Counted from the stretch's first letter, positions 2,310 to 25,686 are shown. The stretch: DNA of 32,000 nucleotides from Moraxella nasovis (GCF_022701215.1 NZ_CP089976.1:990001-1022000), one strand, 5' to 3'. Numbers and translations are program-made. The notes: generated by a model from the letters alone, not told the origin.

Positions 2310-2906
2310 TTACAGCACATTCTTGGTAGATGGCAATGCCCCATTGGCACGCTCATCAATCTCACACGCCATACGCAAGGCACGGGCGAGTGCTTTGAAC
2401 ACGCTTTCTATTTGATGATGGCTGTTCTTGCCTTTTAGGTTGTCAATGTGCAGTGTGATGGCGGCATTGTTGACAAGACCATAAAAAAACTCGCTGAACA
2501 AATCCACGTCCAATCTGCCCACATAAGCACGAGTAAATGGCACGTCCATATGCAGGCTTGGGCGACCTGAAATATCCACCACCACACGGCTTAGGCTCTC
2601 ATCAAGCGGTGCATAAAAATGCCCATAACGGCGAATGCCTTTTTTGTCGCCCAAGGCAATTTTTAGGGCTTGACCAAGTGCGATGCCAATGTCTTCTACG
2701 CTGTGATGGTCATCAATGTGCGTATCGCCTGTGCATTTGATTTCAAGGTCAAACAAACCATGGCGAGTGATTTGCTCTAACATATGATCCAAAAATGGTA
2801 CGCCTGTATCTAGCTGACTTTTGCCTGTGCCGTCAATGTTGATGGCAACAAAAATCTGCGTCTCGGCGGTGTTTCGGCTAATTTGTGCGGTGCGTGGGGC
2901 GTTCAT
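2310..2906 (-). CDS. hisB: imidazoleglycerol-phosphate dehydratase
   Basis: IGPD motifs are present: [41 protein letters not shown] moved the start to the internal ATG at 2906 ([16 protein letters not shown]), which has a GGAG SD. The upstream 20 codons of the listed ORF look non-native. Confidence 0.88.
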
Positions 2907-3026
2907 GACATCTCCTGTCTTGGCATTTGCTTGACAAAAACACCATTTTACACAAAATTTACTCATTTTGGGGGAAATTTTTATGAAAAATCAGCCCCAA
3001 GATGTCATAAACTTATGCCATAAACT

Positions 3027-3055
3027 TTGCCAATCAAAGTGCTTTGGATTATAAT
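3027..3055 (+). promoter_or_regulatory. putative sigma70 promoter for def
   Basis: TTGCCA (3027-3032), a 17-nt spacer, then TATAAT (3050-3055), about 30 nt upstream of the def ATG. Confidence 0.5.
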
Positions 3056-3085
3056 GAGATAACTCAACCTTTAATCGAGATAACT

Positions 3086-3598
3086 ATGGCACTTTTACCG
3101 ATTTTACATTATCCAGACCCACGCCTGCGGACGGTCGCCAAAGATGTTTTGGTGATTGATGATGACATCAAAACACTCATCAAAGATATGTTTGAGACCA
3201 TGTATAATGCCCAAGGCATAGGCTTGGCTGCCACCCAAGTAGACAGACACATTCGTGTGGTGGTGATGGATTTGGCAGGACAAGATGAAGATCCACAACC
3301 AAAAGTCTATATCAACCCCAAAGTAACTCCACTCACCGATGAGGTCGCCCCCTACAAAGAAGGCTGTCTGTCTATCCCAGAGGTGTATGATGAGGTGTCT
3401 CGCCCCACTCGTGTCCGCATAGAGGCATTAGATGAGCATGGCGATGAATTTAGCGTAGAAGCAGACGGACTGCTTGCGGTGTGTATTCAGCACGAGCTTG
3501 ACCATCTTAATGGCGTGGTATTCGTAGATTATTTGTCTCGCCTAAAACAAGACCGTGCCAGAGATAAAGTACGCAAAGTTACCGCCAAAAACACCTAA
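3086..3598 (+). CDS. def: peptide deformylase
   Basis: The three PDF motifs are present: [14 protein letters not shown] and QHELDHLNG. The start is set at ATG 3086 ([15 protein letters not shown]), the typical Def N-terminus. Confidence 0.92.
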
Positions 3599-3630
3599 TC
3601 AAAACATCTAATCAAATCAAAACACCCAAT

Positions 3631-3658
3631 AAAAACCCAAGATAAACTCTTGGGTTTT
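3631..3658. terminator. bidirectional terminator hairpin between def and the convergent thioesterase gene
   Basis: An 8-bp stem, ACCCAAGA with TCTTGGGT, and loop TAAAC. It is flanked by an A-run on the left and a T-run on the right. Confidence 0.55.
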
Positions 3659-3690
3659 GGGTATCAAAAATCCAACTCAATAAAGGTTAG

Positions 3691-4230
3691 TTAAGGAAAA
3701 GGACGCAGTTTATCGGCATCAATCCACGCCTGCACCCATTCATCAGGTGGCAGACTGACATCATGATAACCAAGCTGATTGAGCACATCTTGACTATCAA
3801 TGCTCTTGCCTGTTTTGATGTTGGTAACGGCGGTGCGTAGCAAGGCATGACAAGCACATACCCCTTTGACCCACAAGGTTTGTTCCATATAAAACCAACG
3901 CCCATCAATGGCTACGACACGAGTTTTCATGGTAACTTTGTCAAAGGCACGGATACGCTTTTTGTATTGAATGGTACTACCTGCTACCACAAACCCCCAA
4001 CGGTTTTCAAGCAGTTTTTTGCCAAGTCCTGCCCTAATGGCAAAATCCGTCCGCCCCAAATCAAATAGCGTAAAAATCCGTCCGTTATTCATCTCCAAAA
4101 AATTATCAATGTCATTTAATTGCACCGTAAATTGGTATGTGGCGGTGTCGGTCAAGCGAAGTTTGTCGCCTTGTTTAAAGTCTAATGAGCTTTTGGCTAG
4201 GGTTTTGGCTAAACGTAAAAATGGGTACAT
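3691..4230 (-). CDS. hotdog-fold acyl-CoA thioesterase family protein
   Basis: 179 aa. The pattern NDIDNFLEMNNGRIFTLFDLGRTDF...GFVVAGSTIQYKKRIRAFDKV resembles thioesterase-superfamily proteins. An SD GAAGG lies upstream. The family assignment comes from memory of the fold signature and is not verified. Confidence 0.6.
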   Translation of the reverse strand: MYPFLRLAKTLAKSSLDFKQGDKLRLTDTATYQFTVQLNDIDNFLEMNNGRIFTLFDLGRTDFAIRAGLGKKLLENRWGFVVAGSTIQYKKRIRAFDKVTMKTRVVAIDGRWFYMEQTLWVKGVCACHALLRTAVTNIKTGKSIDSQDVLNQLGYHDVSLPPDEWVQAWIDADKLRPFP

Positions 4231-4305
4231 AATCTACCTTCTTTGGTTTGATGAGTATGGTTGTGCATCAACAGCAAATATTTAAAACATTGAAAAAACA
4301 AGTCG

Positions 4306-6153
4306 TCAGCCGTCCATCTCTCCTAAAAATCCGCCACTTTGTCTTGCCCAAAGCCCTGCATAAATACCGCCACGAGCGATAAGTTCATCATGACTGCCCA
4401 TCTCCACAATCTCCCCTTTATCCATGACAACCAGCTTATCTAGGCTTGCAATCGTGGAGAGACGATGGGCGATGGCGATGACGGTTTTGCCGGTCATCAT
4501 GTCGTCTAGGCTTTGAGTGATGGCGTGTTCTACTTCACTATCTAGGGCGGATGTGGCTTCATCAAGCAGTAAAATCGGTGCGTTTTTGAGCATGACACGA
4601 GCGATGGCGATACGCTGACGCTGACCACCAGACAGCTTAACCCCCCGCTCGCCGACTTGTACATCAAGCCCTGTATTGCCATATTTGTCGTGTAGGCTTT
4701 GGATAAACTCCCACGCATGGGCTTTTTTGGCAGCCATGATAATCTCATCATCAGTCGCATCAGGTCTGCCATAGGCGATGTTTTCTCGCACGGTGCGGTG
4801 AAGTAGGGACGTGTCTTGGGTTACCATGCCGATTTGATGGCGAAGTGAGTTTTGGGTAACTTGGCTGATGTCTTGACCATCAATACAAATTCGCCCACCG
4901 TCCACATCATAAAATCTTAGCAACAGATTGACAAGGCTAGATTTACCCGCCCCACTTCGCCCCACCAGACCGACTTTCTCGCCTGCTTTGATGCTAAGAT
5001 TAAATTGATTAAATAGCCCAAGTTGATCATCACCACGCCCATAATTAAACACCATCTCATCAAAAACAATATCCCCTGCCGTCACCACCAAATCCTTGGC
5101 ACCATCTTTGTCTGTGATGGCGTGTGGCATGGTCAGTGTTCCCATACCATCTTGCACCGTACCGATATGCTCAAACAAAGTTGCCGTCTGCCACATGATC
5201 CACTGAATCATGCCTTTTAATCTAAGGGCAATACCACTTGCCACCGCAATCGCCCCCACCGTAACCTGCCCTTGTGTCCACAGATAGACACCGATGGCAG
5301 TAGAGCCGACAATCATCATCAAAGACAACAGTTCAGTGGTCGTACCTAGCAAAGACACCCACCGCATTTGGGCGTGGACAGTACTCATAAAGTCCGTCAT
5401 GGCGGATTTGGAATAATCTAGCTCACGGTGTGAATGGCTAAATAATTTGACCGCACTGATGTTGGCATAAGCGTCCGTGATACGCCCTGTCATCAAGGCT
5501 CGTGCGTCCGCCTGCATACTTGCGGTTCGTTTTAGACGTGGCAAAAAAATTTTCATAATCACGCCTGCACAAACAAGCCACGCCACAAATGGCAAGAACA
5601 GCCACACATCAAGCCCAAACAAAATCACACCGCTCGTTACAAGATAAGCGATAACAAATGACATCATCTCCGCCATCGTCATAATCGTATCACGCACGGC
5701 AAGAGCGGTTTGCATCACCTTGGCAGACACACGCCCTGAAAATTCATCTTGATAAAACTGCATGGATTGCCCAAGCATGTGCTTATGAAACCACCATCTA
5801 AGTCGCATGGGAAACACGCCTTGCAAGGTCTGAAAGTGGATCAAATTCCCCAAAAACTCGCCAATGATAGACAAGACACACAAGCCCAAAATCAGCATGA
5901 TGGTCGCCCCTTTTTCTTGCCAAAGGGTCTGTGGGCTATAAGTGGTCAGCCAATCTACCACATCACCTGCCCAAGCAAATAACAGCGAACCAAATATTCC
6001 CAAAAGCATGGATAATAGCATACGCATCAGTATCCAGCCACGAGCACCCGCCGTACACGCCCACAAAAAGGCAAATAATCCGTCTTTGGCGGTGGGCATG
6101 GGGGTGTCAGGATAAGTGTCTAGGCGGTTTTCAAAGTAGGAAAATAGGGACAT
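4306..6153 (-). CDS. ABC transporter, fused permease/ATP-binding exporter (MsbA/multidrug-like)
   Basis: 615 aa. The N-terminal half is hydrophobic with about 6 TM segments. The C-terminal NBD has Walker A GRSGAGKSS, signature LSGGQRQR, Walker B ILLLDEATSALD and the H-loop AIAHRL. Confidence 0.88.
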   Translation of the reverse strand: MSLFSYFENRLDTYPDTPMPTAKDGLFAFLWACTAGARGWILMRMLLSMLLGIFGSLLFAWAGDVVDWLTTYSPQTLWQEKGATIMLILGLCVLSIIGEFLGNLIHFQTLQGVFPMRLRWWFHKHMLGQSMQFYQDEFSGRVSAKVMQTALAVRDTIMTMAEMMSFVIAYLVTSGVILFGLDVWLFLPFVAWLVCAGVIMKIFLPRLKRTASMQADARALMTGRITDAYANISAVKLFSHSHRELDYSKSAMTDFMSTVHAQMRWVSLLGTTTELLSLMMIVGSTAIGVYLWTQGQVTVGAIAVASGIALRLKGMIQWIMWQTATLFEHIGTVQDGMGTLTMPHAITDKDGAKDLVVTAGDIVFDEMVFNYGRGDDQLGLFNQFNLSIKAGEKVGLVGRSGAGKSSLVNLLLRFYDVDGGRICIDGQDISQVTQNSLRHQIGMVTQDTSLLHRTVRENIAYGRPDATDDEIIMAAKKAHAWEFIQSLHDKYGNTGLDVQVGERGVKLSGGQRQRIAIARVMLKNAPILLLDEATSALDSEVEHAITQSLDDMMTGKTVIAIAHRLSTIASLDKLVVMDKGEIVEMGSHDELIARGGIYAGLWARQSGGFLGEMDG

Positions 6154-6205
6154 GAGTTTTTTTTTATAAATGATACGATTAAAACTTACTATTATAACAG
6201 TTTAT

Positions 6206-6233
6206 CATCACATAAACAAAAAACCGCCCAAAG
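6206..6233 (-). terminator. Rho-independent terminator ending the thiC transcript
   Basis: The minus strand reads AGCCGTCC-TTT-GGGCGGTT followed by TTTTTT. It sits about 190 nt downstream of the thiC stop. Confidence 0.5.
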
Positions 6234-6423
6234 GACGGCTTTTGTGGTGGTTTTATTTTCGGCTATGGCTTGAAAAGTATGCTGACAAGAAAACCGTTTG
6301 TGGTGAGCTATGCCTGCCCATGACGGTTTTCCCGCCCTTCGATAGTTCGGCAAGCTCACTACTCAGGGCGAACAAAAAACCAAACTAACACACTTTTTGA
6401 ACCACCCCCTTATTTTCTTATGG

Positions 6424-8298
<1,875 letters not shown>

Positions 8299-9934: not shown

Positions 9935-10285
9935 ATGAGCAACATCACCAAACTTGACAGCAACGACAGCCTAAGCGAAATCGCCATTCATCAAGGCGTG
10001 GTCTATTTGGCAGGGCAAGTACCCAATGACGACAGCCTAGATATTAAAGGACAATCTCGTGAAGTATTCGCCAATATAGACGAAGCCCTTGCCAAGGCAG
10101 GTACAGATAAATCAAAACTGCTATCTGCTCAGGTGTTCATTACCGATTTGGCGAATTTTGACGCATTTAATGCCGAGTGGAATGCGTGGGTGCAAGGCAT
10201 CACACCCCCTGCTCGTGCGACCATTGAAGCAAAATTAGTCAATCCAAAATGGCTGATTGAGATTATGGTCATCGCAGCCATTTAA
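9935..10285 (+). CDS. RidA/YjgF family reactive-intermediate deaminase
   Basis: 116 aa with a YjgF-like pattern: VYLAGQVP, VFITDLANFDAFNAEW, PARATIEA. Its position downstream of dadA is functionally coherent, since RidA proteins quench imine intermediates. Confidence 0.8.
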   Translation: MSNITKLDSNDSLSEIAIHQGVVYLAGQVPNDDSLDIKGQSREVFANIDEALAKAGTDKSKLLSAQVFITDLANFDAFNAEWNAWVQGITPPARATIEAKLVNPKWLIEIMVIAAI

Positions 10286-10321
10286 TCAATAAGGATTTAA
10301 TATCAATAAGCTCATCACACC

Positions 10322-10366
10322 AAAGCACCAAGCCTAGATATTTGTAGGGTTTGGTGCTTTTTTTTG
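10322..10366 (+). terminator. Rho-independent terminator after the dadA/RidA-family unit
   Basis: AAAGCACCAAGCC pairs with GGGTTTGGTGCTTT to form the stem, followed by TTTTTTT. Confidence 0.65.
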
Positions 10367-10461
10367 GGTTGTGATAAAGTTAGATTATGGTTGTGGTTGA
10401 TTGGGATAAAGTTGAAATTTTGATGGGCTAAGCATCTTAAGTACATCAAACATTTAAGTAA

Positions 10462-12969
10462 TCAAACATCTATTTTATCAAATTCATCTCGCCCCACCAC
10501 CGTATTATAAAGCCCCACCTTGTCTTTGTGTCTGTCTAGCCCTGTGTATTCTAGACTACTGTCTTCATAGCGTTTAAATTTATATACCGCATCATTCATC
10601 AGACTGCCATTAAAGACATTTAGGCGGTTTAGCAGAGCAAAATCTGATTGCGTAAGACCTGTTACACGGCGAAATAAATCAGGTTCAAGCTGGGTAATCA
10701 CATCTTCTAGACAATGCTCACGATAATCGGTCAGATACATAAATATGGGTATGCGTGTGGCGAATTTGATGAGTTTTTCTTGGATTTGTTTGCGAAGCGA
10801 TTTGTATTCTTTTTCTTCATCGCTAAGTTCTTTTTTCTCTTTGGGTGTCAGCTCATCGCCTTTTTCTTTTTTTGTTTTTGCCACGTTTTCAGATTTATTG
10901 ATGATTGTCTCAATGTCTTGGTTTAGACTTCTAAATCCTTCAATACCCATTAAAGCTTTCATCGCTTTATCATCATTCATCAGCCGTGTCAATGTGTCGT
11001 TATCCACATTAACAAGTAAAGCACTCTCCCACCGCCGTGCCAAAAGTGTGGCAGTCGTGCCACTCATCGCCATGTCTAGAACGCCGCCTGCATCTATCTG
11101 CTTCATCGTGCTACCATCATAGGCAAGCACAGGCAAAAAGCGGATAAACTCACCCACCTTTTGTTCAGGATTGGTGTTCGTGTTGTCCAACCGACAGCTG
11201 TATTCAGCGATTTGGCGTAAGGCTCTATTGGGAGCAAAATCAAAGACATAGCACTGCTCTTTTAAGATGGTCTCGCCATGTGGGTCGGTGGGGTCATAGT
11301 TTTTAAGCACCCAAGGGGTCTGCACCCGAAATGCCGCCTGAAAATAAGTCTCTGGGCTTGTGGTATTACGGAGCATAAAAATCCCCGTCCACGGAGCGAC
11401 CGATACGCCTGTGGTGAGCTTACCGCAGGAGAGCGTGATGGTCTTGGTGGTCAAAGGATTGCTGCCCATCGCCTGCTGTACAGGGGGCAAGGCTTCTACA
11501 CCAATACCTGCCTGCGTGCCTGCACAGACGATAATTTTATACTCATGAAAAAACTGATTTTGTTTTTGGGCCAATAAATTATTCATCGCAAAACAGCTCG
11601 CCACAGATGGCAAAAACCAAAAAGTATGCAGTAGCCCATTTTTTAGATGCACATCACTAAATGGCATGGGCGGTTTTTTTGCCCCCATTTTTAGGGTGTC
11701 TACGGTCATCTCAGGCAGTTTGTTTTGGATAAATTCTAGCCAGCGTTGCACTTCGTTCTCATGGATAAACCGTGCCGTATCGCCATCACCTGTCGCACGA
11801 AAAAACTCATTTAAATCAAATTCATTAAACTCGCCTTTCTTTGCCACATCACGAATGCTATCAGGGAGCTGATAGGTCATCATCACCATCTTGGGTAGTG
11901 ATAAATACGGATTTTTGCCGTATGTGTCGTCCCACTCGGCTTTGGCTTTTTGTTCGTCTGAATACGTCCAGTTAAAAATCTGCTCTTCAATAAATTCGCC
12001 TGACGACATCGCCCGAAATGGCGTGCCTGACAAATACAAATAGTGGTCTGTGGTAATCGGCAAAAGCTCTTGGTCAAAGTCTTTTAAAAATGAGCTTTCG
12101 GCAAATTCTTGCTCTTTTTTGTCGGTTTCGCCATCAAATAAATCACGAGCATTCTCACGCCACGCCCCATAATGATATTCATCAAAAATCACGCAGTCCC
12201 AATTTAGGGCGTGTACCCATTCATTTTTGGCTTTGATACCGCCTGATCTGGTTTTGCCCAAAAAGTCTTGAAATGACCCAAAGCAGACAATCGGGCGATT
12301 TTTATCCGCCGTGTCAATCGTCAAATCGCTGTTTTTGCTGATGAACTGCCAACCTACAAAATCCACATGGCTTTTTAGGTCATTTTCCCAAGCATCTTGC
12401 ACCGCAGGCTTGAACGTCAAAATCAGTATACGCTCCCAACCCATCGCACGGGCAAGCTGATAACTGGCAAAAGTCTTGCCAAATCGCATTTTGGCATTCC
12501 ACAAAAATCTGGGCGATTTGCCATGATTGGCAGGCTCTGCCGAAAAACTCTCAAAATACGCCTTGGTGCGTGCCACCGCCTGTGCCTGCTCAGGACGTAG
12601 CCCAAAATCTGCCGTGCGCCTGTCCGCCATCGCCTTGCCTGTCTTAACAGTCAAAAATGCCGAATGGACATCGTCTAGTGTGCAAGCGAACCACTCGCCA
12701 TTTGGTCTGTCAAAACCCATCTTAATCAGGGCTTGATGAATGGCATGGTCGCTAAATGTCGTGCCGTCATCACGAACCGCCAGCTCATCAAAGACAATCC
12801 GCCAGCTCTGGCGTGGTGTGGCAATCGGATACTGTGCCTGCACACGTTCCAAGGCGGTCTTGGTGGTGTAGCCGACCTTGATACAGCCGTCAAACCGCTC
12901 ATCGGTATAGGCATAAATGCGGGGTGGGTTTAGGGTGTCGGTGAGATTGACGGGGGTTTGTGGGTTCAT
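10462..12969 (-). CDS. T5orf172/GIY-YIG-like N-terminal domain fused to an SF2 (ResIII/DEAD-like) helicase; candidate effector of the island operon
   Basis: 835 aa. Residues ~17-100, RIYAYTDERFDGCIKVGYTTKTALERVQ...GEWF, match the T5orf172 (MUG113, GIY-YIG superfamily) pattern. The helicase has motif I AKMRFGKTF (~158-167), motif II VIFDEYH (~260-266) and motif III LSGTPFRA (~313-320). The C-terminal region has a charged coiled-coil-like stretch, KEKGDELTPKEKKELSDEEKEYKSLRKQIQEK. The ATG overlaps the upstream stop (ATGA). Confidence 0.8.
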   Translation of the reverse strand: MNPQTPVNLTDTLNPPRIYAYTDERFDGCIKVGYTTKTALERVQAQYPIATPRQSWRIVFDELAVRDDGTTFSDHAIHQALIKMGFDRPNGEWFACTLDDVHSAFLTVKTGKAMADRRTADFGLRPEQAQAVARTKAYFESFSAEPANHGKSPRFLWNAKMRFGKTFASYQLARAMGWERILILTFKPAVQDAWENDLKSHVDFVGWQFISKNSDLTIDTADKNRPIVCFGSFQDFLGKTRSGGIKAKNEWVHALNWDCVIFDEYHYGAWRENARDLFDGETDKKEQEFAESSFLKDFDQELLPITTDHYLYLSGTPFRAMSSGEFIEEQIFNWTYSDEQKAKAEWDDTYGKNPYLSLPKMVMMTYQLPDSIRDVAKKGEFNEFDLNEFFRATGDGDTARFIHENEVQRWLEFIQNKLPEMTVDTLKMGAKKPPMPFSDVHLKNGLLHTFWFLPSVASCFAMNNLLAQKQNQFFHEYKIIVCAGTQAGIGVEALPPVQQAMGSNPLTTKTITLSCGKLTTGVSVAPWTGIFMLRNTTSPETYFQAAFRVQTPWVLKNYDPTDPHGETILKEQCYVFDFAPNRALRQIAEYSCRLDNTNTNPEQKVGEFIRFLPVLAYDGSTMKQIDAGGVLDMAMSGTTATLLARRWESALLVNVDNDTLTRLMNDDKAMKALMGIEGFRSLNQDIETIINKSENVAKTKKEKGDELTPKEKKELSDEEKEYKSLRKQIQEKLIKFATRIPIFMYLTDYREHCLEDVITQLEPDLFRRVTGLTQSDFALLNRLNVFNGSLMNDAVYKFKRYEDSSLEYTGLDRHKDKVGLYNTVVGRDEFDKIDV

Positions 12970-13647
12970 TGGGTTTTTCTCGCTTTTAAGAAAAATTCAA
13001 TTTCATCATTTTGAACTTTTTGATGATAAAAATTTAAAAAATCTTGTTCAAGATATTTATGACCATCTAATAAAAAAGGAATATGATTTCCCAAATCATT
13101 TGGCGAGATAATTAAATCTAATTTATCCGTCAATTCATTTTTATCCAAAAATTCTTGAACAATTTGTGTCGTTGTGGGATTACTATATAAATCAAATTCT
13201 TGATAATTTAATCCATCAATTGACGCCAGTTCTTTTCGTTTTTCGTATTTAAAGTCTTGAATAACATCTTGACAAAATTCCTTAAAATTTTCAAAATCTG
13301 TTGGCTTTTTAATCGCTTTTGTTGATAAAATAGAAACCTGTCGGAATTTGCTTTTATCTGACAAATCTCTAATATAAAAACATTTTTTTGCTATTTCTAT
13401 TACGAATTTCTTTTGGTGGATAATCCACATAAAATTCACAATTATCCAAATCAAAATGCTGTTTTAACTCATCTCTACCGCTATAAAAACAGCTTAAAAA
13501 ATCTTTTAAATCCAAAATATCATCAGCATTAGTAACAATACCGCCCAAATTTTGCTCGGCATTATCCCTAATAGATTGAAAATGTTTAACTAGATTAGTT
13601 TGATTAAAAGATACATTGCGTGTTTTTAACGTATAATTTTTACTCAT
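12966..13647 (-). pseudogene. unknown-function gene (~226 aa if intact) split by a frameshift at an A7 tract
   Basis: The N-terminal part (ATG 13647, MSKNYTLKTRNVSF...EIRNRNSKKMFLY*) stops at 13369. The C-terminal part continues in the +1 frame to 12966 (...KKCFYIRDLSDKSKF...KARKTQ*). With A6 instead of A7 at 13383-13389 the two parts join as ...NSKKCFYIRDL.... I recognise no domain. Confidence 0.6.
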
Positions 13648-15175
13648 TTTCAAGCTCCATCGGTCTAACCATCTTTTCAATAAAAGCAATCTCATCATCA
13701 GATAAACCATATTTTTGATACAATTCATCATCTGTCCACGATTTTGAAAAGTCTTGCATAGGTACGAATTGATAAACTTTTTGAGTTCCATCTTGTGTAT
13801 TCTTTTTAAGTAGAACCAAAAAGCGGAAAAATCTTGTACTAATATAAGACATTACATTTTTGCAAATTTGTTCATTTTCAAATGTTCCAATAACTAAATA
13901 AGTTTCTGTACAAGCTGTATTTGGTTTACCCAAAAATGGTTTTCCTAATACCCAAAAATTAGATGAAATTCTTTCCCCATAAGCTCTTGCAATATAAACT
14001 TTATACTGATTAACCCAATTTCTATTCCTATCTATATCATTTAAACTTATATAATTTATACCATCGCTTGTATACAATTCAACACTGTTACTATTTGATT
14101 TTGATTGTCCACGATATGATGTAGAAAAACCGAATGGCTTTCTTGAACTAACCAAATTTGAAAAACTTTTTTCTTTAAAATTTTTAATCTTTCTTAATAT
14201 AGAAATTGCCTGATTAAAACGAATAAAAGTTTCAGTGCCATCTTCTTTTAAATATCTATTCATTCTTGAAACAATACTATTTCCTTCAATGGTTTCCACC
14301 AAGCAAGTTCCAGAGTGGCTCTTATCCCACAAAAAATAAGAAACCCCGCCTGAAATATCCACGCCTGGAAAGCAATCATTTGAATCAATATAATCAACCA
14401 AAACTTTTAGACGTCTATCATTTAGCATTTCATCACGAAATTCATCAAGCCCTTTTCCACCTGCAAACCAACGACTAGGCGTAATCATAATCAGATAATG
14501 CGGATTTAATTTTTTGGCTTGCTGGATAAATTTATGATAAATAGGCGTGGCACTTGCAGAAGCACCACCATCCGATAATTGATACGGCGGATTACCAATA
14601 ATTACATCAAATTTCATTTTACTAATTTCCAATTCATAAAAAGATGGGTGGATAAATGCATACGCATGGGTCTCAAATTCATGCTCACGGCTGATACTGC
14701 CGTTACTTTTGTCATAGACATCTTGACTTGCTCCACAGGCTGTGCATTTGCCGTTTTGCCATGTATGCTCGCTTTGGGGGAAAAAGATATTGCCATCATT
14801 ATCATCAAATGCTGTACAAATGCTGTATTCTCCCCCTGCTCGCTTGGCACAATAGACGCTCCGCCGTGATAATAGAGCGGTCAGATGTGTGATGGCGATA
14901 CCGTAGAGTTGCTGGCTAAATATATGATTGAGCCGTTCTTGTAGGTCTGGGATTTGGTGTTCTAAGCCTTTGATGAGACGTTTGGTGATTTCTCGTAGGA
15001 ATACACCTGATTTGCAGACAGGATCCAAAAATGTCGTGTTTGGATTTTCAAATAATGCCTGGGGCAGTCTGTCCAATATTTCATTGACGAGCTTTGGCGG
15101 GGTAAAAACTTCATCATTGGATAAATTGGCAAGGCATTCCAAAACGTCTGGGTTGTAATTGATTAAATCACTCAT
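13640..15175 (-). CDS. N6-adenine DNA methyltransferase, gamma-class Eco57I-like, with a large C-terminal putative target-recognition region
   Basis: 511 aa. It has N-terminal DEVFTPPKLVNEILD, motif I variant FLDPVCKSGVFL, and motif IV FDVIIGNPPYQL (NPPY at residues 195-198, nt ~14582-14593). About 310 aa follow motif IV. Confidence 0.85.
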   Translation of the reverse strand: MSDLINYNPDVLECLANLSNDEVFTPPKLVNEILDRLPQALFENPNTTFLDPVCKSGVFLREITKRLIKGLEHQIPDLQERLNHIFSQQLYGIAITHLTALLSRRSVYCAKRAGGEYSICTAFDDNDGNIFFPQSEHTWQNGKCTACGASQDVYDKSNGSISREHEFETHAYAFIHPSFYELEISKMKFDVIIGNPPYQLSDGGASASATPIYHKFIQQAKKLNPHYLIMITPSRWFAGGKGLDEFRDEMLNDRRLKVLVDYIDSNDCFPGVDISGGVSYFLWDKSHSGTCLVETIEGNSIVSRMNRYLKEDGTETFIRFNQAISILRKIKNFKEKSFSNLVSSRKPFGFSTSYRGQSKSNSNSVELYTSDGINYISLNDIDRNRNWVNQYKVYIARAYGERISSNFWVLGKPFLGKPNTACTETYLVIGTFENEQICKNVMSYISTRFFRFLVLLKKNTQDGTQKVYQFVPMQDFSKSWTDDELYQKYGLSDDEIAFIEKMVRPMELENE

Positions 15176-15861
15176 TTTTTATACTCCTTGTCGCTTAAAT
15201 CAATATCCAAAAAATACACAGGCGGGTATTCTTTTATCGGCTCAGGGATATAAGCGTCATCGCCCAAATCCGAAAATAACGGCAATTCACGCTCGCTGGA
15301 TTTATTGATTAAATCAGGATAGACATATTCACGGCGTATCATATCCGTGCCAAGCATTGACCATTCACTAAACACAATGGGCGTGCCGTCTTTCTGCTTT
15401 AATGATAAAGCATCTCCACATAAGATATTTTTTGATAATAAAAAACGTGCCACGTCTATACAGCGTGGGTTAATGTTTTTAAAATGAGATGAGTAATGAT
15501 TTTGAAAAATCGCTAATAACCGCTCACGACATTCAGCGACATTGTCAGCCAACAGCTCAATACCATAAATGGAGCTAATGGCGGTAATGGCGTTTAATTC
15601 GTAGTTGTATTGAATTTTTTTGTGTTTTTGGTAAATGGCGGTAAGTTTTCGCTGTAATATCACCGCAAGAAAATTCCCCGTACCACAGGCAGGCTCTAAA
15701 AAGGTGGCTTCGGGGTCGGTGCATTGGTGAGCGACCAAATCAAGCATGGCATTGACTTCACGCTCATTTGTATAAACTTCGCCATGGTCTTTGATACGCT
15801 CACGAGACTTGGTCTGAGATGGGGACTGGGGGTGTGTTTGAGTGGCTGATTTAACTTGCAT
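15172..15861 (-). CDS. methyltransferase-like SAM-binding protein lacking the catalytic (D/N/S)PP(Y/F/W) motif
   Basis: 229 aa. It has GEVYTNEREVNAMLDLV (like the GEVFTP helix), canonical motif I FLEPACGTGNFL, motif II/III-like YGIELLADNV, and ILCGDALS. I could find no NPPY-type tetrad in the sequence. Its stop overlaps the next ATG (ATGA). Confidence 0.7.
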   Translation of the reverse strand: MQVKSATQTHPQSPSQTKSRERIKDHGEVYTNEREVNAMLDLVAHQCTDPEATFLEPACGTGNFLAVILQRKLTAIYQKHKKIQYNYELNAITAISSIYGIELLADNVAECRERLLAIFQNHYSSHFKNINPRCIDVARFLLSKNILCGDALSLKQKDGTPIVFSEWSMLGTDMIRREYVYPDLINKSSERELPLFSDLGDDAYIPEPIKEYPPVYFLDIDLSDKEYKK

Positions 15862-15952
15862 GGGATTGCCCCGTGCAGGTCAGATGGTTTGCTAAATGAG
15901 ATAAGAATGGGGTATGATGGGATACTAAGAGATTTTGGGTATGGCTTAGACT

Positions 15953-16106
15953 AGGTACGCAGGTACGCAGGTACGCAGGTACGCAGGTACGCAGGTACGC
16001 AGGTACGCAGGTACGCAGGTACGCAGGTACGCAGGTACGCAGGTACGCAGGTACGCAGGTACGCAGGTACGCAGGTACGCAGGTACGCAGGTACGCAGGT
16101 ACGCAG
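15953..16106. repeat. perfect tandem octanucleotide repeat (AGGTACGC)x19 plus a partial unit; the minus-strand unit is GCGTACCT
   Basis: Counted directly: units start at 15953 + 8k for k = 0 to 18, with no substitutions. It lies 92 nt upstream of the first ATG of the island operon (15861). Confidence 0.97.
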
Positions 16107-16178
16107 AGCATTATAGCGGGCAAATACAGCCTGTCAAGACAATACATGACAATTTCCAATAAAAAGTGAGAAAACTTG

Positions 16179-16207
16179 ATTCTATCATAAATAATAATAC
16201 CAACCAA
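16179..16207 (-). promoter_or_regulatory. putative sigma70 promoter upstream of the repeat, which would place the repeat in a ~310-nt leader
   Basis: The minus strand reads TTGGTT (16207-16202), a 17-nt spacer, then TAGAAT (16184-16179). This rests on sequence pattern only, and other promoters cannot be excluded. Confidence 0.3.
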
Positions 16208-16323
16208 GATGATTAGGGTGGTTTTGTTAATAAATACAGGTGTATTGATAAAGTAGAGATTCTTTGTATATCATACCGGTGAGATAATAGATAACACCAC
16301 AATTCATGCAAGCCCATTTGTAT

Positions 16324-16337
16324 GTTTCACATGAAAC
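16324..16337. repeat. 14-bp palindrome copy, central variant (GTTTCACATGAAAC)
   Basis: Intergenic, between the island and the guaA terminator. The extended context is TATGTTTCACATGAAACATA. Confidence 0.7.
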
Positions 16338-16371
16338 ATATATTTTGAATTCATCTTATCATCACACCCAA

Positions 16372-16399
16372 AAAAACCAAGCACATAGACTTGGTTTTT
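16372..16399 (-). terminator. Rho-independent terminator after guaA
   Basis: The minus strand reads AACCAAG-TCTATGTG-CTTGGTT followed by TTTTTT, immediately 3' of the guaA stop. Confidence 0.65.
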
Positions 16400-16405
16400 A
16401 TGTAT

Positions 16406-17968
16406 TTACTCCCACTCAATGGTCGCAGGTGGCTTGCTACTGACATCATATACCACACGAGACACATCACGGATTTCATTCATGATACGAGTTGAGATTT
16501 TATCCACCAAATCATAAGGCAAATGGGCAAAGCGTGCCGTCATAAAGTCCACCGTCTCAACCGCACGAAGTGCAATCACCCACGCATAACGTCTGCCATC
16601 ACCGACCACCCCTACCGACTTGACAGGCTGAAATACCGCAAATGCCTGTGCCGTCTTATCATACCAACCAGACGCACGAAGCTCCTGCATAAAGATGTCG
16701 TCCGCCATACGCAAAATATCGGCGTATTCTTTTTTGACTTCGCCCAAAATCCGCACGCCAAGACCCGGACCTGGGAATGGGTGGCGATAAATCATGTGAT
16801 GGGGAATGCCAAGTGCCACACCCAATTTGCGTACTTCATCTTTGAATAAATCACGCAGCGGCTCAACCAGTTCAAACGCCAAATCATCAGGCAAACCACC
16901 AACATTATGGTGCGATTTAATGACATGAGCCTTGCCTTGCTTGCTTGCCGCCGATTCAATCACATCAGGATAAATCGTCCCTTGCGCCAAGAATTTCACG
17001 CCATCTAGCTTACGTGCTTCTTCTGAAAACACTTCAATAAATTCTCGTCCGATGATTTTGCGTTTCGCTTCTGGGTCTGTTACGCCTGCCAATGCCATCA
17101 AAAAACGAGACTCAGCGTCAGCACGAATCACACGAATGCCCATATTCTGGGCGAACATTTGCATAACCTCATCGCCTTCATTTAGGCGTAATAAGCCATT
17201 ATCCACAAAAACGCAGGTTAATTGGTCGCCAATCGCCTTATGCAAAAGTGCCGCCACCACCGAACTATCCACACCGCCAGATAAGCCAAGCAATACCTTT
17301 TGGTCGCCGATTTGCTCTTTTAGTTGGGCGATGCGTAGCTCAATGATGTTCTCAGAATTCCACGCATGACCACAGCCACAAATACCATGTACAAAATTAG
17401 AAATCAGCACCACCCCTTTGTCGGTATGCGTAACTTCTGGGTGAAACTGCACCCCATAAAAGCCACGATGCTCATCGCTGGCAGATGCATACGGACAGCT
17501 AGGCGTGCTTGATGTGCTAACAAATCCTTCTGGCAATAAAGATACTTTATCCCCATGGCTCATCCACACTTGGACTTGGTTTTTGTCGTTGGCGATGTTA
17601 CTGAGCAAACGGTCTTGGTGTAATACGTCAATCTCAGCATAACCAAATTCATGCACCAAGCCAGCTTCTACCTTGCCACCAAACTGCTCTGCCATCGTCT
17701 GAAAGCCATAGCAAATACCAAGCACAGGTACGCCAAGCTCAAACACCGCTTTGGGGGCACGTGGACTGCCTGCCTCATGGACGCTCTCAGGACCGCCAGA
17801 TAAAATGATGCCTTTTGGATTAAAGGCTTTGATGTCATCATCAGACATATCAAACGCATACATCTCAGAATACACGCCAGCTTCACGAACACGGCGAGCG
17901 ATAAGCTGGCTGTATTGTGAGCCAAAATCTAGGATTAAAATGCGGTCAGTGGTGATGGTCTGCGTCAT
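16406..17968 (-). CDS. guaA: GMP synthase (glutamine-hydrolysing)
   Basis: 520 aa with the N-terminal GATase ([27 protein letters not shown]), the ATP-PPase P-loop SGGVDSSV, and the C-terminal PPATIEWE. Confidence 0.96.
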
Positions 17969-23084: not shown

Positions 23085-24506
23085 TTAAGCAAACTCTAAA
23101 GTTGCCTTTAAAGATGAGTAGTCCTTAAGAACTTTGGGATCTTCATCACACAGCTCTTTAATTTTTTCGCATGCATGCATGACTGTTGAGTGGTCTCGTC
23201 CGCCAAATGCTTGACCAATTTCAGGAAAGCTATCTTTGGTTAGATCCCGAATTAACGCCATTGCCATTTGGCGTGGTCGTGCAATATTTCTAGCACGCTT
23301 TTTACCCATTAAATCTTTCACCGAAACGCCATAATACTCAGCCACCACTTCACGAATATTTTCAGCGTTGACCGCTCGGGCGCGAGCCTCGATATGATCT
23401 TTAATGGCATGCTTTACAAGTGGTAATGTAATAGCTTCTTTTGAATAAATCACGCTAGCACGCACTTGATTTAATGCCCCTTCAAGGCGACGAACGTCTG
23501 GCGGTACGTTTTGAGCAATAAACAGTGCACATTCTTTTGGCAAATCAACCTGCCAAAGACTGGCTTTTTTTTCCAAAATCTGAACTCGCATCTCAATATC
23601 TGGCGGCTCAATCGCTACTGTCACACCACTTGAAAACCGTGATACGAAACGATCCTCAAATCCTTCCATCTGAGAAGGCTGACGATCTGACGCCAAAATC
23701 AGTCTTTTTTTGCCGTTTGTAAATTCAGTAAACAGTGTTAATAAAAGCTGTGACACTTTCGGGGCTTTTTTATTATTAATTAAATGCACATCATCAACAA
23801 TTAACAAGTCTGCTTTACAAATGCGTTTAATCAAGGCATCTGTCTTACCCTCACCACCACGCAACGCCTCCACCGTTTCTTCAAAAAAACGATCTTTAGT
23901 GAAGTAACAGTAACTTAGCCCTGCTTTTTGGTAACGGTGAGCCACTGCGTGCATTAAATGCGTCTTACCCAATCCTGATGATCCATAGATAAAATACAGC
24001 GTGTAGTCGCTTTGTCCCATTTTTTTAGATAAATCATGACAAACATTATAAGCAGTCGCATTAGATTTACCCTTTACGAACGCATCAAAAGTAAATCTTT
24101 CTTCAATTTGCATACCTTCTGCAATCTGCGTAACCGTCTTACCTCGTTTAGCAGGCACACTCTTTTGATTTGACTGGGTGTCTTGAAATACTGCAATTTG
24201 CACATCAGAGAACATACCTTGGGCGTGCTTTGACACCAAGCGATGCAGCTCTTTTAGATAATGCGTCTTAATATGCTTCACAAAAAACGAGTTGATTGTC
24301 TGCAATATGAGTACATCGCCGACTATCTTTGGGTTTAGTGATGCAAGCCATGTGGAGTATTCTGAATTACCCACACTTTCTTGAATCTCAGCTGTACACG
24401 CTTGCCAAAATGCCATTGACCCAGCTGGCTTGACCGCCTTATCAAGCTTCTCAAGTTTTTTAACTTTCGGTTCATCAAGCTCTGTATCATCAAAAAGCGA
24501 CATCAT
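23085..24506 (-). CDS. dnaA: chromosomal replication initiator DnaA
   Basis: AAA+ Walker A GSSGLGKTHL, Walker B LLIVDDVH, and the DNA-binding helix GGRDHSTVMHA. The start is set at ATG 24506 (MMSLFDD), which has a GGAG SD about 9 nt upstream. The listed ATG at 24584 adds 26 odd residues, and 24503 is also possible. Confidence 0.93.
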   Translation of the reverse strand: MMSLFDDTELDEPKVKKLEKLDKAVKPAGSMAFWQACTAEIQESVGNSEYSTWLASLNPKIVGDVLILQTINSFFVKHIKTHYLKELHRLVSKHAQGMFSDVQIAVFQDTQSNQKSVPAKRGKTVTQIAEGMQIEERFTFDAFVKGKSNATAYNVCHDLSKKMGQSDYTLYFIYGSSGLGKTHLMHAVAHRYQKAGLSYCYFTKDRFFEETVEALRGGEGKTDALIKRICKADLLIVDDVHLINNKKAPKVSQLLLTLFTEFTNGKKRLILASDRQPSQMEGFEDRFVSRFSSGVTVAIEPPDIEMRVQILEKKASLWQVDLPKECALFIAQNVPPDVRRLEGALNQVRASVIYSKEAITLPLVKHAIKDHIEARARAVNAENIREVVAEYYGVSVKDLMGKKRARNIARPRQMAMALIRDLTKDSFPEIGQAFGGRDHSTVMHACEKIKELCDEDPKVLKDYSSLKATLEFA

Positions 24507-24646
24507 GCCACAATACTCCAAAAAAAACACCCTTAACGGTTCAGCTAAGACTAAGTCACTCAATTTACATGAGTTCATACACAAATATCATTAAGTGCAT
24601 ATAGTAACACAGCTTAAATCAATAGCCAAGAATTTTTGATTAAAAT

Positions 24647-24853
24647 TGTGGATAACTTTATGGAAAACTCTGTTTATAACTTTATCAACAGAGTTTTCCA
24701 CAGTTTATTGACAAAGTTTAAACAAATTTTTCCACAATATAAGTTAATGTTTTTAAATAAATTAATTAACTTTTCCACAATTTTAGTATCTCTTTATTAT
24801 TATTATATTCTCTATTTATTTTAAGAATAAGAAAATTAAAAATCTGTGGATAA
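24647..24853. other. candidate oriC: DnaA boxes plus an AT-rich unwinding region in the dnaA-rpmH spacer
   Basis: Perfect TTATCCACA boxes in reverse orientation at 24647-24655 and 24845-24853. One-mismatch TTTTCCACA boxes at 24694-24702, 24728-24736 and 24771-24779. 24781-24840 is about 12% GC by hand count, with repeated CTCT(T/A)TTTATT-like elements. Gene orientation diverges here. Confidence 0.7.
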
Positions 24854-24974
24854 CATTTTAAATTTTGTAATTTTTGCTAAAAAATAAAGGCATAAAATCT
24901 GTTCTTAGGACATCTATATAACACCATATTAGTACCACCAATAAGATGCGATTATCACTAAAAACAAAAAAATA

Positions 24975-25003
24975 TTTGACCTTAAAAATCATTTTTAGTA
25001 TAA
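24975..25003 (+). promoter_or_regulatory. strong sigma70 promoter for rpmH-rnpA
   Basis: TTGACC (24975-24980), a 17-nt spacer, then TATAAT (24998-25003). Confidence 0.65.
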
Positions 25004-25067
25004 TGAGTAAGATTTTTGCTAATCTTAGGCAAAAAGAATTTAAATTTGTCATTCATTAGTGACTTAA

Positions 25068-25262
<195 letters not shown>

Positions 25263-25277
25263 ACGATCGATGAATAA

Positions 25278-25306
25278 AAAGCACCACATTGATGGTGCTT
25301 TTTTTA
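25278..25306 (+). terminator. hairpin plus T-run between rpmH and rnpA (attenuator or partial terminator)
   Basis: GCACCA-CATTGA-TGGTGC followed by TTTTTTT. Confidence 0.55.
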
Positions 25307-25329
25307 ATGATGTTTAGTGGTCCTAAAAC

Positions 25330-25686
25330 ATGAAGAAAAATTCTTTTAGTAAGTCGCAACGAATTTTAACGCCAGATGAATATAAATTGGTTTTTAATAA
25401 GCCGATTAAGAAAATCCACAGCGATCATCTACTTTTATTTGTCCAAAAAAACAATACCAAGAAGCCACGACTTGGGCTTGCCATTACCAAAAAAAAACTA
25501 AAGCACGCAGTGATGAGAAACTGGACCAAAAGGCTGGCTCGAGAGTATTTTCGCCATGTAGCCTTAGAGATTGGGTCAGTTGATGTGGTATTGATTGTCA
25601 AAAAAAGCTTTACCAAAGAGTGTGATATTCATGGTGAATTAAATCATTTATTTGGCAAACTACGTACTTATCACCCAGCATCATGA
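25330..25686 (+). CDS. rnpA: ribonuclease P protein component
   Basis: 118 aa, basic, in the conserved position after rpmH. The RNR-like region is [22 protein letters not shown]. Confidence 0.9.

Follow-up and report, generated by a model that had tools for sequence, protein, structure and literature searches.

A probable chromosomal DrdVI-family restriction–modification operon with an upstream repeat tract in Moraxella nasovis

Identification of a DrdVI-family core

We analysed a window of 32 000 nucleotides from Moraxella nasovis (GCF_022701215.1, NZ_CP089976.1:990001-1022000; positions below are counted from its first letter; an NCBI protein of this species is 100% identical to gene 4), in which a single operon of four genes, called here genes 1 to 4 and all located on the minus strand, fills the interval between ridA and guaA (Table 1). 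This locus is very probably a chromosomal, ATP-dependent restriction–modification (R-M) system of the DrdVI family, with a core of three proteins (M1, M2 and R, encoded by genes 1, 2 and 4, respectively), a cargo gene (gene 3) and an expression that is likely to be switched or tuned by the repeat in front of gene 1.

The assignment follows from comparison with the plasmid pDrdVI of Deinococcus wulumuqiensis 479 (NZ_CP031164.1), in which three consecutive genes (2175-2813, 2822-4441 and 4434-6989) match genes 1, 2 and 4. Gene 1 is 40% identical to M1.DrdVI over 199 amino acids (expectation value E of 3e-46), gene 2 is 48% identical to M2.DrdVI over its full length and gene 4 is 56% identical to R.DrdVI, also over its full length (838 columns). 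The order M1-M2-R and an M2/R overlap are common to pDrdVI and the M. nasovis operon. The features by which we assign membership of the family, namely the homology of M1, M2 and R and their succession in this order on a single strand, are therefore all present. The authors of REBASE have described DrdVI as a ‘split methylase’ Type IIG family (PMC4996451, PMC6430315, PMC10113651), in which M1-M2.MaeIV of Methanococcus aeolicus has also been placed (PMC10113651), and R.DrdVI, to which they ascribe a GIY-YIG domain, as ‘a fused translocase and REase’ (PMC4996451). When co-expressed in Escherichia coli, M1 and M2 methylate one adenine of a short asymmetric site, GCAGCC for DrdVI and GCACY for MaeIV (PMC6430315, PMC10113651).

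A first-pass annotation of this DNA had presented the operon as an undescribed defence system. Its inventory holds: open reading frame (ORF) calling and reading of the sequence return the four ORFs with the positions, sizes and motifs that it gave, in one co-oriented helicase-nuclease/methyltransferase operon lying between two terminators and with translational overlaps at every junction (ATGA at 15172-15175 between genes 1 and 2, ATGAGTAA at 13640-13647 between genes 2 and 3, and ATGA at 12966-12969 between genes 3 and 4). The absence of an integrase or transposase among the ORFs called and of a tRNA at the locus in the tRNA scan, which it had also reported, was confirmed. The domains that it had assigned to genes 1, 2 and 4 are borne out by the matches given below, and both the internal frameshift and the upstream repeat are present in the assembly. 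Its conclusion fares differently, since three of the four genes have full-length DrdVI homologues in the same order and the system is thus already known for those three. Moreover, PADLOC already catches genes 2 and 4 as RM Type IIG through a single model (PDLC03626, ‘REase_MTase_IIG’), which matches both because fused R-M2 proteins exist.

Such a fused, two-gene form is found on plasmids of Enterococcus, Lactococcus and Lactobacillus, where a small ‘N-6 DNA methylase’, sharing 35% identity with gene 1, precedes a 1456-residue ‘Eco57I methylase domain-containing protein’. Over its first two-thirds, the latter aligns with gene 4 (35%, E 3e-109), in an alignment that takes in the T5orf172 region and part of the helical tail at the C-terminus, and its last third aligns with the stretch of gene 2 that runs from NPPY to the C-terminus (28%, E 8e-37). 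This form differs from the M. nasovis system in that R and M2 are one polypeptide and in that the N-terminal domain of some members is DUF4145 and not T5orf172. The fusion is good evidence that R and M2 act in one complex. We also tried the Hma, MADS, DISARM, BREX and Zorya systems as candidates, and rejected them, as PADLOC returned none of them for this gene set (for MADS, weak methylase similarity only).

We then called ORFs around gene 4 homologues in other genomes and compared them with the four proteins of the window. In all 58 loci with enough upstream sequence, M1 and M2 homologues (about 207-245 and 500-520 amino acids, respectively) lie upstream of R on the same strand, which speaks for a joint action of the three proteins. 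Conservation of the cassette as a unit, which the first-pass annotation had proposed to test, holds for M1-M2-R but only rarely extends to gene 3. At least 594 gene 4 loci were confirmed in species-representative genomes. R is unusually conserved across phyla: the best 80 of these loci are 62-77% identical to gene 4 and span Flavobacteriia, Chloroflexi, Planctomycetota, Actinobacteria, spirochaetes, Clostridia, Patescibacteria and a Heimdallarchaeota bin. Among the proteins searched, relatives of gene 1 number more than 8000 (counted as clusters), as do those of gene 4. The DrdVI family is thus very widespread, from Deinococcus to Bacteroidota and an archaeal bin, yet it is without a solved structure or, in the searchable literature, a published cleavage mechanism.

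Table 1. Features of the M. nasovis locus and repeats associated with M1 in related loci
Feature	Sequence	Position	Strand	Description
ridA	M. nasovis	9935-10285	+	Flanking gene, next to dadA
Downstream boundary of the insert	M. nasovis	~10324-10366	+	Hairpin and T-run between ridA and the end of gene 4, ridA terminator (sequence reading)
Gene 4 / R subunit	M. nasovis	10462-12969	-	835 amino acids; N-terminal T5orf172/GIY-YIG-type nuclease, superfamily 2 (SF2) ATPase/translocase, C-terminal helical ‘coupler’
Gene 3 / accessory cargo	M. nasovis	12966-13647	-	Frameshifted, 226 amino acids if repaired; start ATG 13647
Gene 2 / M2 subunit	M. nasovis	13640-15175	-	511 amino acids; Eco57I/gamma-class N6-adenine methyltransferase, variable C-terminal target-recognition region
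Gene 1 / M1 subunit	M. nasovis	15172-15861	-	229 amino acids; N-terminal half of a gamma-class methylase, motifs X, I, II and III
Leader ORF	M. nasovis	15851-16147	-	98 amino acids from ATG 16147, second in-frame ATG 16111; runs through the repeat, TAA 8 nt inside gene 1
Simple sequence repeat	M. nasovis	15953-16106	-	GCGTACCT x19.2, 8-bp unit, 100% perfect (Tandem Repeats Finder)
Sigma-70 promoter-like site	M. nasovis	16110-16137	-	TTGACA, 16-nt spacer, TATAAT; 12/12 consensus matches
Upstream boundary of the insert	M. nasovis	16372-16399		guaA terminator hairpin, 10-bp stem (terminator scan and sequence)
guaA	M. nasovis	16406-17968	-	Flanking gene, next to gyrB
Repeat upstream of M1	M. caviae			CTGCGTGC x10.8
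Repeat upstream of M1	M. marmotae			CTGT x32
Repeat upstream of M1	N. zoodegmatis			CCTG x21
Repeat upstream of M1	Neisseriaceae bacterium B1			CGTTG x17
Repeat upstream of M1	Gallibacterium melopsittaci			AATCTGC x8.4
Repeat upstream of M1	Rodentibacter haemolyticus			CACG x30
Repeat upstream of M1	H. paracuniculus			ACGC x17
Repeat inside M1	Necropsobacter rosorum			Long AACGC tract, in frame, in an N-terminally extended M1: MPN(ATQRN)n...GIQVKSKQRV

The three core subunits

In gene 1, Pfam recognizes only the front part of the MmeI_Mtase/N6_Mtase models. The motifs GEVFT..., FLEPACGxGNFL, YGI(D/E) and GDAL, which correspond to motifs X, I, II and III, are retained, but NPPY is absent from gene 1 and from all of the 61 homologues compared, in every one of which a conserved F-S-E-W-S stands at its position. 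The gene 1 profile aligns to HsdM and MmeI at motifs X/I. The AlphaFold2 (AF2) model is confident (predicted local distance difference test, pLDDT, 87), and a Foldseek search with it returned the methylase domains of LlaGI, BrxX, LlaBIII, BsaXI and DrdV, all with E > 0.1 and hence suggestive only. M1 thus looks like a catalytically dead, paralogous half-domain that stands beside a complete M2, and the name ‘split methylase’ may be somewhat misleading. Candidate roles for M1 are those of an obligate partner, of a sensor of S-adenosylmethionine (SAM) or of the methylation state, or of an adaptor to R.

Gene 2 matches Eco57I in Pfam (E 7.5e-37). Its motif I is FLDPVCKSGVFL (residues 49-60; FLDPxxKSGVFL in the family) and precedes motif IV, GNPPYQL, with NPPY at residues 195-198; according to the conservation profile, both motifs are invariant or nearly so across homologues. 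The target-recognition region, by comparison with that of M2.DrdVI, is divergent and very AT-rich. M2 is therefore, as judged from its full set of motifs, predicted to be a complete enzyme of the gamma class. We also considered gene 1 as the SAM-binding half of a truly split enzyme, an idea prompted by the fused plasmid protein, which aligns to gene 2 only from NPPY onwards. We reject it, since gene 2 has a motif X and a motif I (in a K-[ST]-G variant) of its own, as has the fused protein when its alignment to gene 2 is read, and since this motif I of gene 2, like its motif IV, aligns to that of a solved BREX-type methylase (8c45). All M2 homologues also contain a Cys/His cluster between motifs II/III and NPPY (residues 108-149 in gene 2: C109, H137, C144 and C147), which looks like a small zinc-binding insertion within the methylase fold.

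Pfam finds T5orf172 (residues 18-105) and ResIII in gene 4, the C-terminus is helical or coiled-coil, and the only nuclease-like domain is the N-terminal T5orf172; no NCBIfam model matches. The residues expected for a GIY-YIG-type site (Tyr19, Arg42 and Glu92, the latter in GEWF) are invariant in 15 homologues, and so are those of the SF2 motor: GKT at 164-166 (Lys165), DEYH at 263-266 (Asp263 and Glu264), SGTP at 314-317 and QAAFRVQT at 544-551. With the nuclease and ATPase residues of R and the NPPY and motif I of M2 thus preserved, both subunits are likely to be active.

Proposed mechanism and relation to known R-M types

In the mechanism that we propose, M1 would contribute a methylase-like half-domain that keeps the SAM-binding motifs, and M2 the methyltransferase with its own target-recognition region. 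R would dock on M2 through its helical tail, as the domains, the fusions and the conservation together suggest. At an unmethylated site, the M1-M2-R complex would hydrolyse ATP and translocate DNA, and the N-terminal nuclease of R would cut, so that the complex would be functionally similar to Type ISP and Type III enzymes with different nuclease folds. Slippage in the 19-copy repeat between the promoter and M1 would switch or tune expression; a repeat-bearing leader ORF, which in one of the three frames ends on the M1 start, may couple translation of M1-M2-R to the number of repeats.

The first-pass annotation had stated that the operon fits no known type. This is true of the textbook Types I, III, ISP and IIG, but the DrdVI family does fit. 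With pDrdVI, the M. nasovis system shares an M1 without NPPY and an R in which a GIY-YIG-type nuclease is fused to a translocase; it differs by its chromosomal location, by the additional cargo gene between M2 and R and by the 19-copy 8-bp repeat after the promoter. It is not a Type IIG enzyme in the strict sense, because restriction and methylation reside in separate ORFs (R and M2), as opposed to the fused relatives on Firmicute plasmids. Nor is it of Type I, as no ORF has an HsdS-like match in Pfam, PADLOC or NCBIfam.

The Type ISP enzymes LlaGI and LlaBIII have in common with it a nuclease, an SF2 translocase, a coupler, a gamma-class adenine methylase and a recognition domain, and asymmetric sites are expected here too. 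However, they are single polypeptides that lack an M1 partner and have a nuclease of the Mrr/PD-(D/E)xK type, whereas M. nasovis has three polypeptides and T5orf172; moreover, no sequence-level match to the LlaGI/LlaBIII structures was found. The Type III system EcoP15I (Mod/Res) also has the methylase gene first and the helicase-nuclease second; ATP-dependent restriction at asymmetric sites is a shared expectation, and repeat-driven phase variation of Type III systems occurs in the same bacterial families. On the other hand, Mod is of the beta class, in which motif IV precedes motif I, and the PD-(D/E)xK nuclease of Res is C-terminal, whereas M. nasovis has a gamma-class methylase, an N-terminal T5orf172 and a second methylase-like subunit.

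In the DnmA(YeeA)-YeeB-YeeC cluster, an MmeI-like methylase, a DEAD helicase and a T5orf172/GIY-YIG protein are always encoded together (PMC2731913, PMC9973331). Gene 1 matches the MmeI methylase model of Pfam, but the link is one of domain content only: DnmA is a single large MmeI-like methylase and the helicase and T5orf172 proteins are separate, whereas M. nasovis has a pair of 229 and 511 amino acids and a helicase-T5orf172 fusion. The papers on MmeI and on Type ISP had already pointed to uncharacterized relatives with helicase subunits and GIY-YIG nucleases (PMC2731913, PMC3553950). To understand the part played by an M1 without NPPY, and the way in which a translocase would drive a GIY-YIG-type nuclease, would close a real gap between the Type ISP, Type III and MmeI-like enzymes.

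A repeat tract upstream of M1

The promoter-like site of the operon is the sole perfect one within 10200-16500. It ends 3 nt before the repeat, which itself ends 91 nt before the ATG of M1 (Table 1). Similar -35/-10 boxes adjoin the repeats in H. paracuniculus, Rodentibacter and Gallibacterium. A long perfect repeat accompanies M1 in all nine copies of the system from host-adapted Moraxellaceae, Neisseriaceae and Pasteurellaceae; it lies inside M1 in one of them and a short distance upstream in the others. The repeat units are unrelated among the nine loci, and their position is conserved. Among the environmental loci, a repeat is seen in only one of about 55, in a bin of the methanotroph Methyloglobulus (CCAG x12 upstream of M1, at ~4110). 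The phase variation proposed by the first-pass annotation thus gains in plausibility from the conserved position of the tract, and phase-variable or tunable expression via the repeat is likely. Phase-variable Type III and Type I mod genes with repeats are known in the same genera (PMC5909438, PMC7383803).

How the repeat might act can be read from the frames around it. In M. nasovis, a leader ORF runs through the tract and, at the present number of repeats, lies in the ‘ON’ frame, which extends to the start of M1. In all eight loci with an upstream repeat, the frame of M1 is closed between the repeat and the ATG, and one other frame is open up to a stop located 7-8 nt inside M1; both of the frames that remain are closed within 2-26 nt of the end of the repeat in seven of these loci, often as CTAGCCTAA. 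Seven of the eight also have an upstream ATG from which the repeat is read through; it lies in the long frame in M. nasovis and Gallibacterium and one repeat unit off it in four of the others that we worked through. Shuffling gives only p ~0.03 overall for the presence of some open frame between the repeat and the ATG. These frames suggest, as a hypothesis, that the leader ORF may be translationally coupled to M1. The idea that the repeat lies within an N-terminal extension of gene 1 holds for Necropsobacter alone; for M. nasovis and the seven other loci it was rejected, since in-frame stops intervene.

It is a real possibility, although one that we doubt, that the repeat instead acts as a 5′ leader of variable length, by which transcription or mRNA stability is graded, and is not an ON/OFF translational switch. 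In several species, 1-6 nt separate the end of the consensus -35/-10 boxes from the repeats, so that transcription should begin within the tract and the mRNA would contain no upstream ATG; M1 also has its own Shine–Dalgarno sequence. Against this explanation speak the open frame leading from the repeat to a stop that overlaps the M1 ATG in every upstream-repeat locus, the early stops in the other two frames in seven of the eight and the Necropsobacter repeat, which is in frame within M1.

A second alternative concerns the purpose of the switch. The locus could be mainly an epigenetic switch (phasevarion), in which repeat-controlled M1-M2 would vary methylation and expression genome-wide, with restriction secondary or lost. 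The near-confinement of the repeats to host-adapted loci favours it, as does the match with the pattern of the phase-variable Type III and Type I mod genes cited above. Yet M. nasovis and most relatives have an intact, highly conserved R and, because R belongs to the same operon, switching would silence restriction along with methylation, so that restriction need not be lost. We regard a mainly epigenetic role as rather unlikely; it is compatible with the assignment to the DrdVI family.

The repeat tracts in nine of nine host-adapted loci and the conserved NPPY-less M1 beside a complete M2 go beyond what we found in the searchable literature. We propose tentatively, as something a little short of an even chance, that repeat-switched DrdVI-type R-M systems of host-adapted Moraxellaceae, Neisseriaceae and Pasteurellaceae form an unrecognized class, possibly of phasevarions, with coupling through a leader ORF, a cargo slot in which gene 3 represents a new rare family, and an M1 that is a dead paralogue partnering M2. 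If this is true, a repeat-switched DrdVI-type methylase could be an overlooked source of epigenetic phase variation in veterinary and human commensals and pathogens, as phase-variation surveys have so far covered Type I and Type III systems.

Is the system active?

Several points weigh against a functional, repeat-switched DrdVI-family system at this locus. Restriction activity of the family is undocumented in the searchable literature, in which we also found neither a cleavage position nor a requirement for two sites; cleavage and translocation are deduced from the domains only. Nobody has demonstrated a requirement or a role for M1. The AF2 model of gene 4 is poor (pLDDT 58, with 15 close homologues) and its structural support is limited to a generic SF2 fold: its Foldseek matches are generic SF2 ATPases with a template-modelling (TM) score of ~0.14, from which we conclude nothing on its closeness to HsdR, Res or LlaGI. 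When all PDB chains were searched with the sequences of genes 1, 2 and 4, with the fused plasmid protein and with family profiles, no useful match and no solved relative emerged. As to the switch, the consensus -10 box overlaps the nearest ATG of the leader ORF, and it may operate via transcription or via translation. Finally, the copies in Bibersteinia trehalosi are decayed, fragmented and inactive (PMC4996451) and the domain-analogous DnmA-YeeB-YeeC cluster of Bacillus subtilis gave no protection against phages (PMC9973331); such cassettes can therefore be relics.

We may then wonder whether the M. nasovis locus is itself a decaying relic without current function, like the Bibersteinia group D locus or DnmA-YeeBC of B. 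subtilis. Besides these precedents, M2 is apparently truncated in Neisseriaceae bacterium B1, and gene 3 of M. nasovis is frameshifted, as the first-pass annotation had noticed. Gene 3 is split into two pieces (ORFs 13369-13791 and 12966-13454) by one extra A in a run of seven at 13383-13389. Comparison of the frames with the homologues from M. caviae and Gallibacterium indicates that A6 in place of A7 restores an ORF of 226 amino acids (...NRNSKKCFYIRD..., colinear with ...GTKCLFIVD... in M. caviae). The lesion may be real decay, phase variation or a homopolymer assembly error. It is, however, the only one in the operon and affects a dispensable cargo gene, whereas M1, M2 and R have kept their full length and all their catalytic motifs, and the leader ORF lies in the frame leading to the start of M1. 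A relic is thus improbable.

A variable cargo slot between M2 and R

No significant match to gene 3 was obtained with Pfam, PHROG or PADLOC, and for four of its homologues the matches in Pfam and PHROG (DUF3223, DUF4313 and ThiS) were inconsistent and stayed below threshold. The family is rare, with 35 clusters among 1.84 billion representatives and two matches in a word-indexed search. Gene 3 is absent from pDrdVI, and relatives are present in only three of about 65 other loci, those of M. caviae, Gallibacterium melopsittaci and Neisseriaceae bacterium B1.

More generally, gene 2 abuts or overlaps gene 4 in 42 of 72 loci, and an insert of 0.4-4.3 kb separates them in the other 30 (a count that includes two duplicate records of M. 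caviae). The inserts belong to unrelated families: a DUF1016/YhcG nuclease (PADLOC PDC-S02), RhuM (PDC-S05), Bro-N (PDC-S13), a Schlafen-AlbA2 ATPase, an AAA_15/21 ATPase (HEC-01), Ppl, a Tn5-type transposase and ORFans. In closer relatives, the slot also takes up FRG-domain proteins and a HigBA pair. The FRG-domain proteins (PF08867, 286-355 amino acids) occupy the slot in M. marmotae, Rodentibacter haemolyticus and H. paracuniculus, where their starts overlap the stop of M2. Genes embedded in R-M operons have precedents in Type I systems, with PrrC (PMC12707154) and with DUF1016 or RhuM between hsd genes (PMC9881135).

Comparison of the loci therefore presents gene 3 as cargo in a variable slot between M2 and R, which in other genomes houses different small genes of defence type, and not as a core subunit. 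The first-pass annotation had argued for a four-gene unit of fixed stoichiometry; genes 1, 2 and 4 are indeed conserved together, but gene 3 does not share this conservation. That all four genes encode one such complex outside the known R-M families is scarcely credible: overlapping junctions throughout, gene 3 homologues at the same position in three other loci and the misfit with the textbook R-M types speak for it, but genes 1, 2 and 4 are full-length DrdVI homologues, nearly all other loci have unrelated genes or nothing in place of gene 3, and gene 3 is frameshifted where the other three genes are intact.

In Bibersteinia, the small ORFs between the two halves of the locus had been guessed to be fragments of the original gene (PMC4996451); our comparative data suggest that they may be better read as a cargo slot. 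In N. zoodegmatis and Neisseriaceae bacterium B1, the cassette lies at a common chromosomal site, between the genes for electron transfer flavoprotein (ETF) alpha and a beta-eliminating lyase. The slot of the former is a gap of ~700 bp without a gene on the same strand, while that of the latter holds a gene 3 homologue and HigBA; the repeat units, CCTG and CGTTG, differ as well. Both cargo and repeat therefore turn over faster than the core.

Surroundings of the cassette

Across 13000-14500, the G+C content of the M. nasovis cassette dips to 28-30%, against ~44% in the flanks. A tandem duplication of 16-17 bp (TTAAGTACATCAAACAT x2 on the plus strand) at 10433-10472 straddles the stop codon of gene 4 and copies the last 8 nt of the gene together with 8 nt beyond; it could be a scar of recombination or insertion at the edge of the cassette. 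In M. caviae, the cassette is flanked on both sides (4669-4727 and 10586-10649) by about 2.7 copies of a common 22-bp unit, AAAACCGTTCGTGGTGA(A/G)CACA, which may mark the insertion site or be an intergenic repeat specific to the species. On plasmid pCRULAC2 of Corynebacterium crudilactis, an R homologue (4950-7508, 57% identical) directly follows aph(3'')-Ib/aph(6)-Id, and neither M1 nor M2 is listed upstream of it; a resistance transposon may have cut off an orphan R gene, or the gene table of the plasmid may have a gap. Elsewhere in the window, a second trough of low G+C content (31-32%, compared with ~41-44% in its surroundings) is located at 24000-25500.

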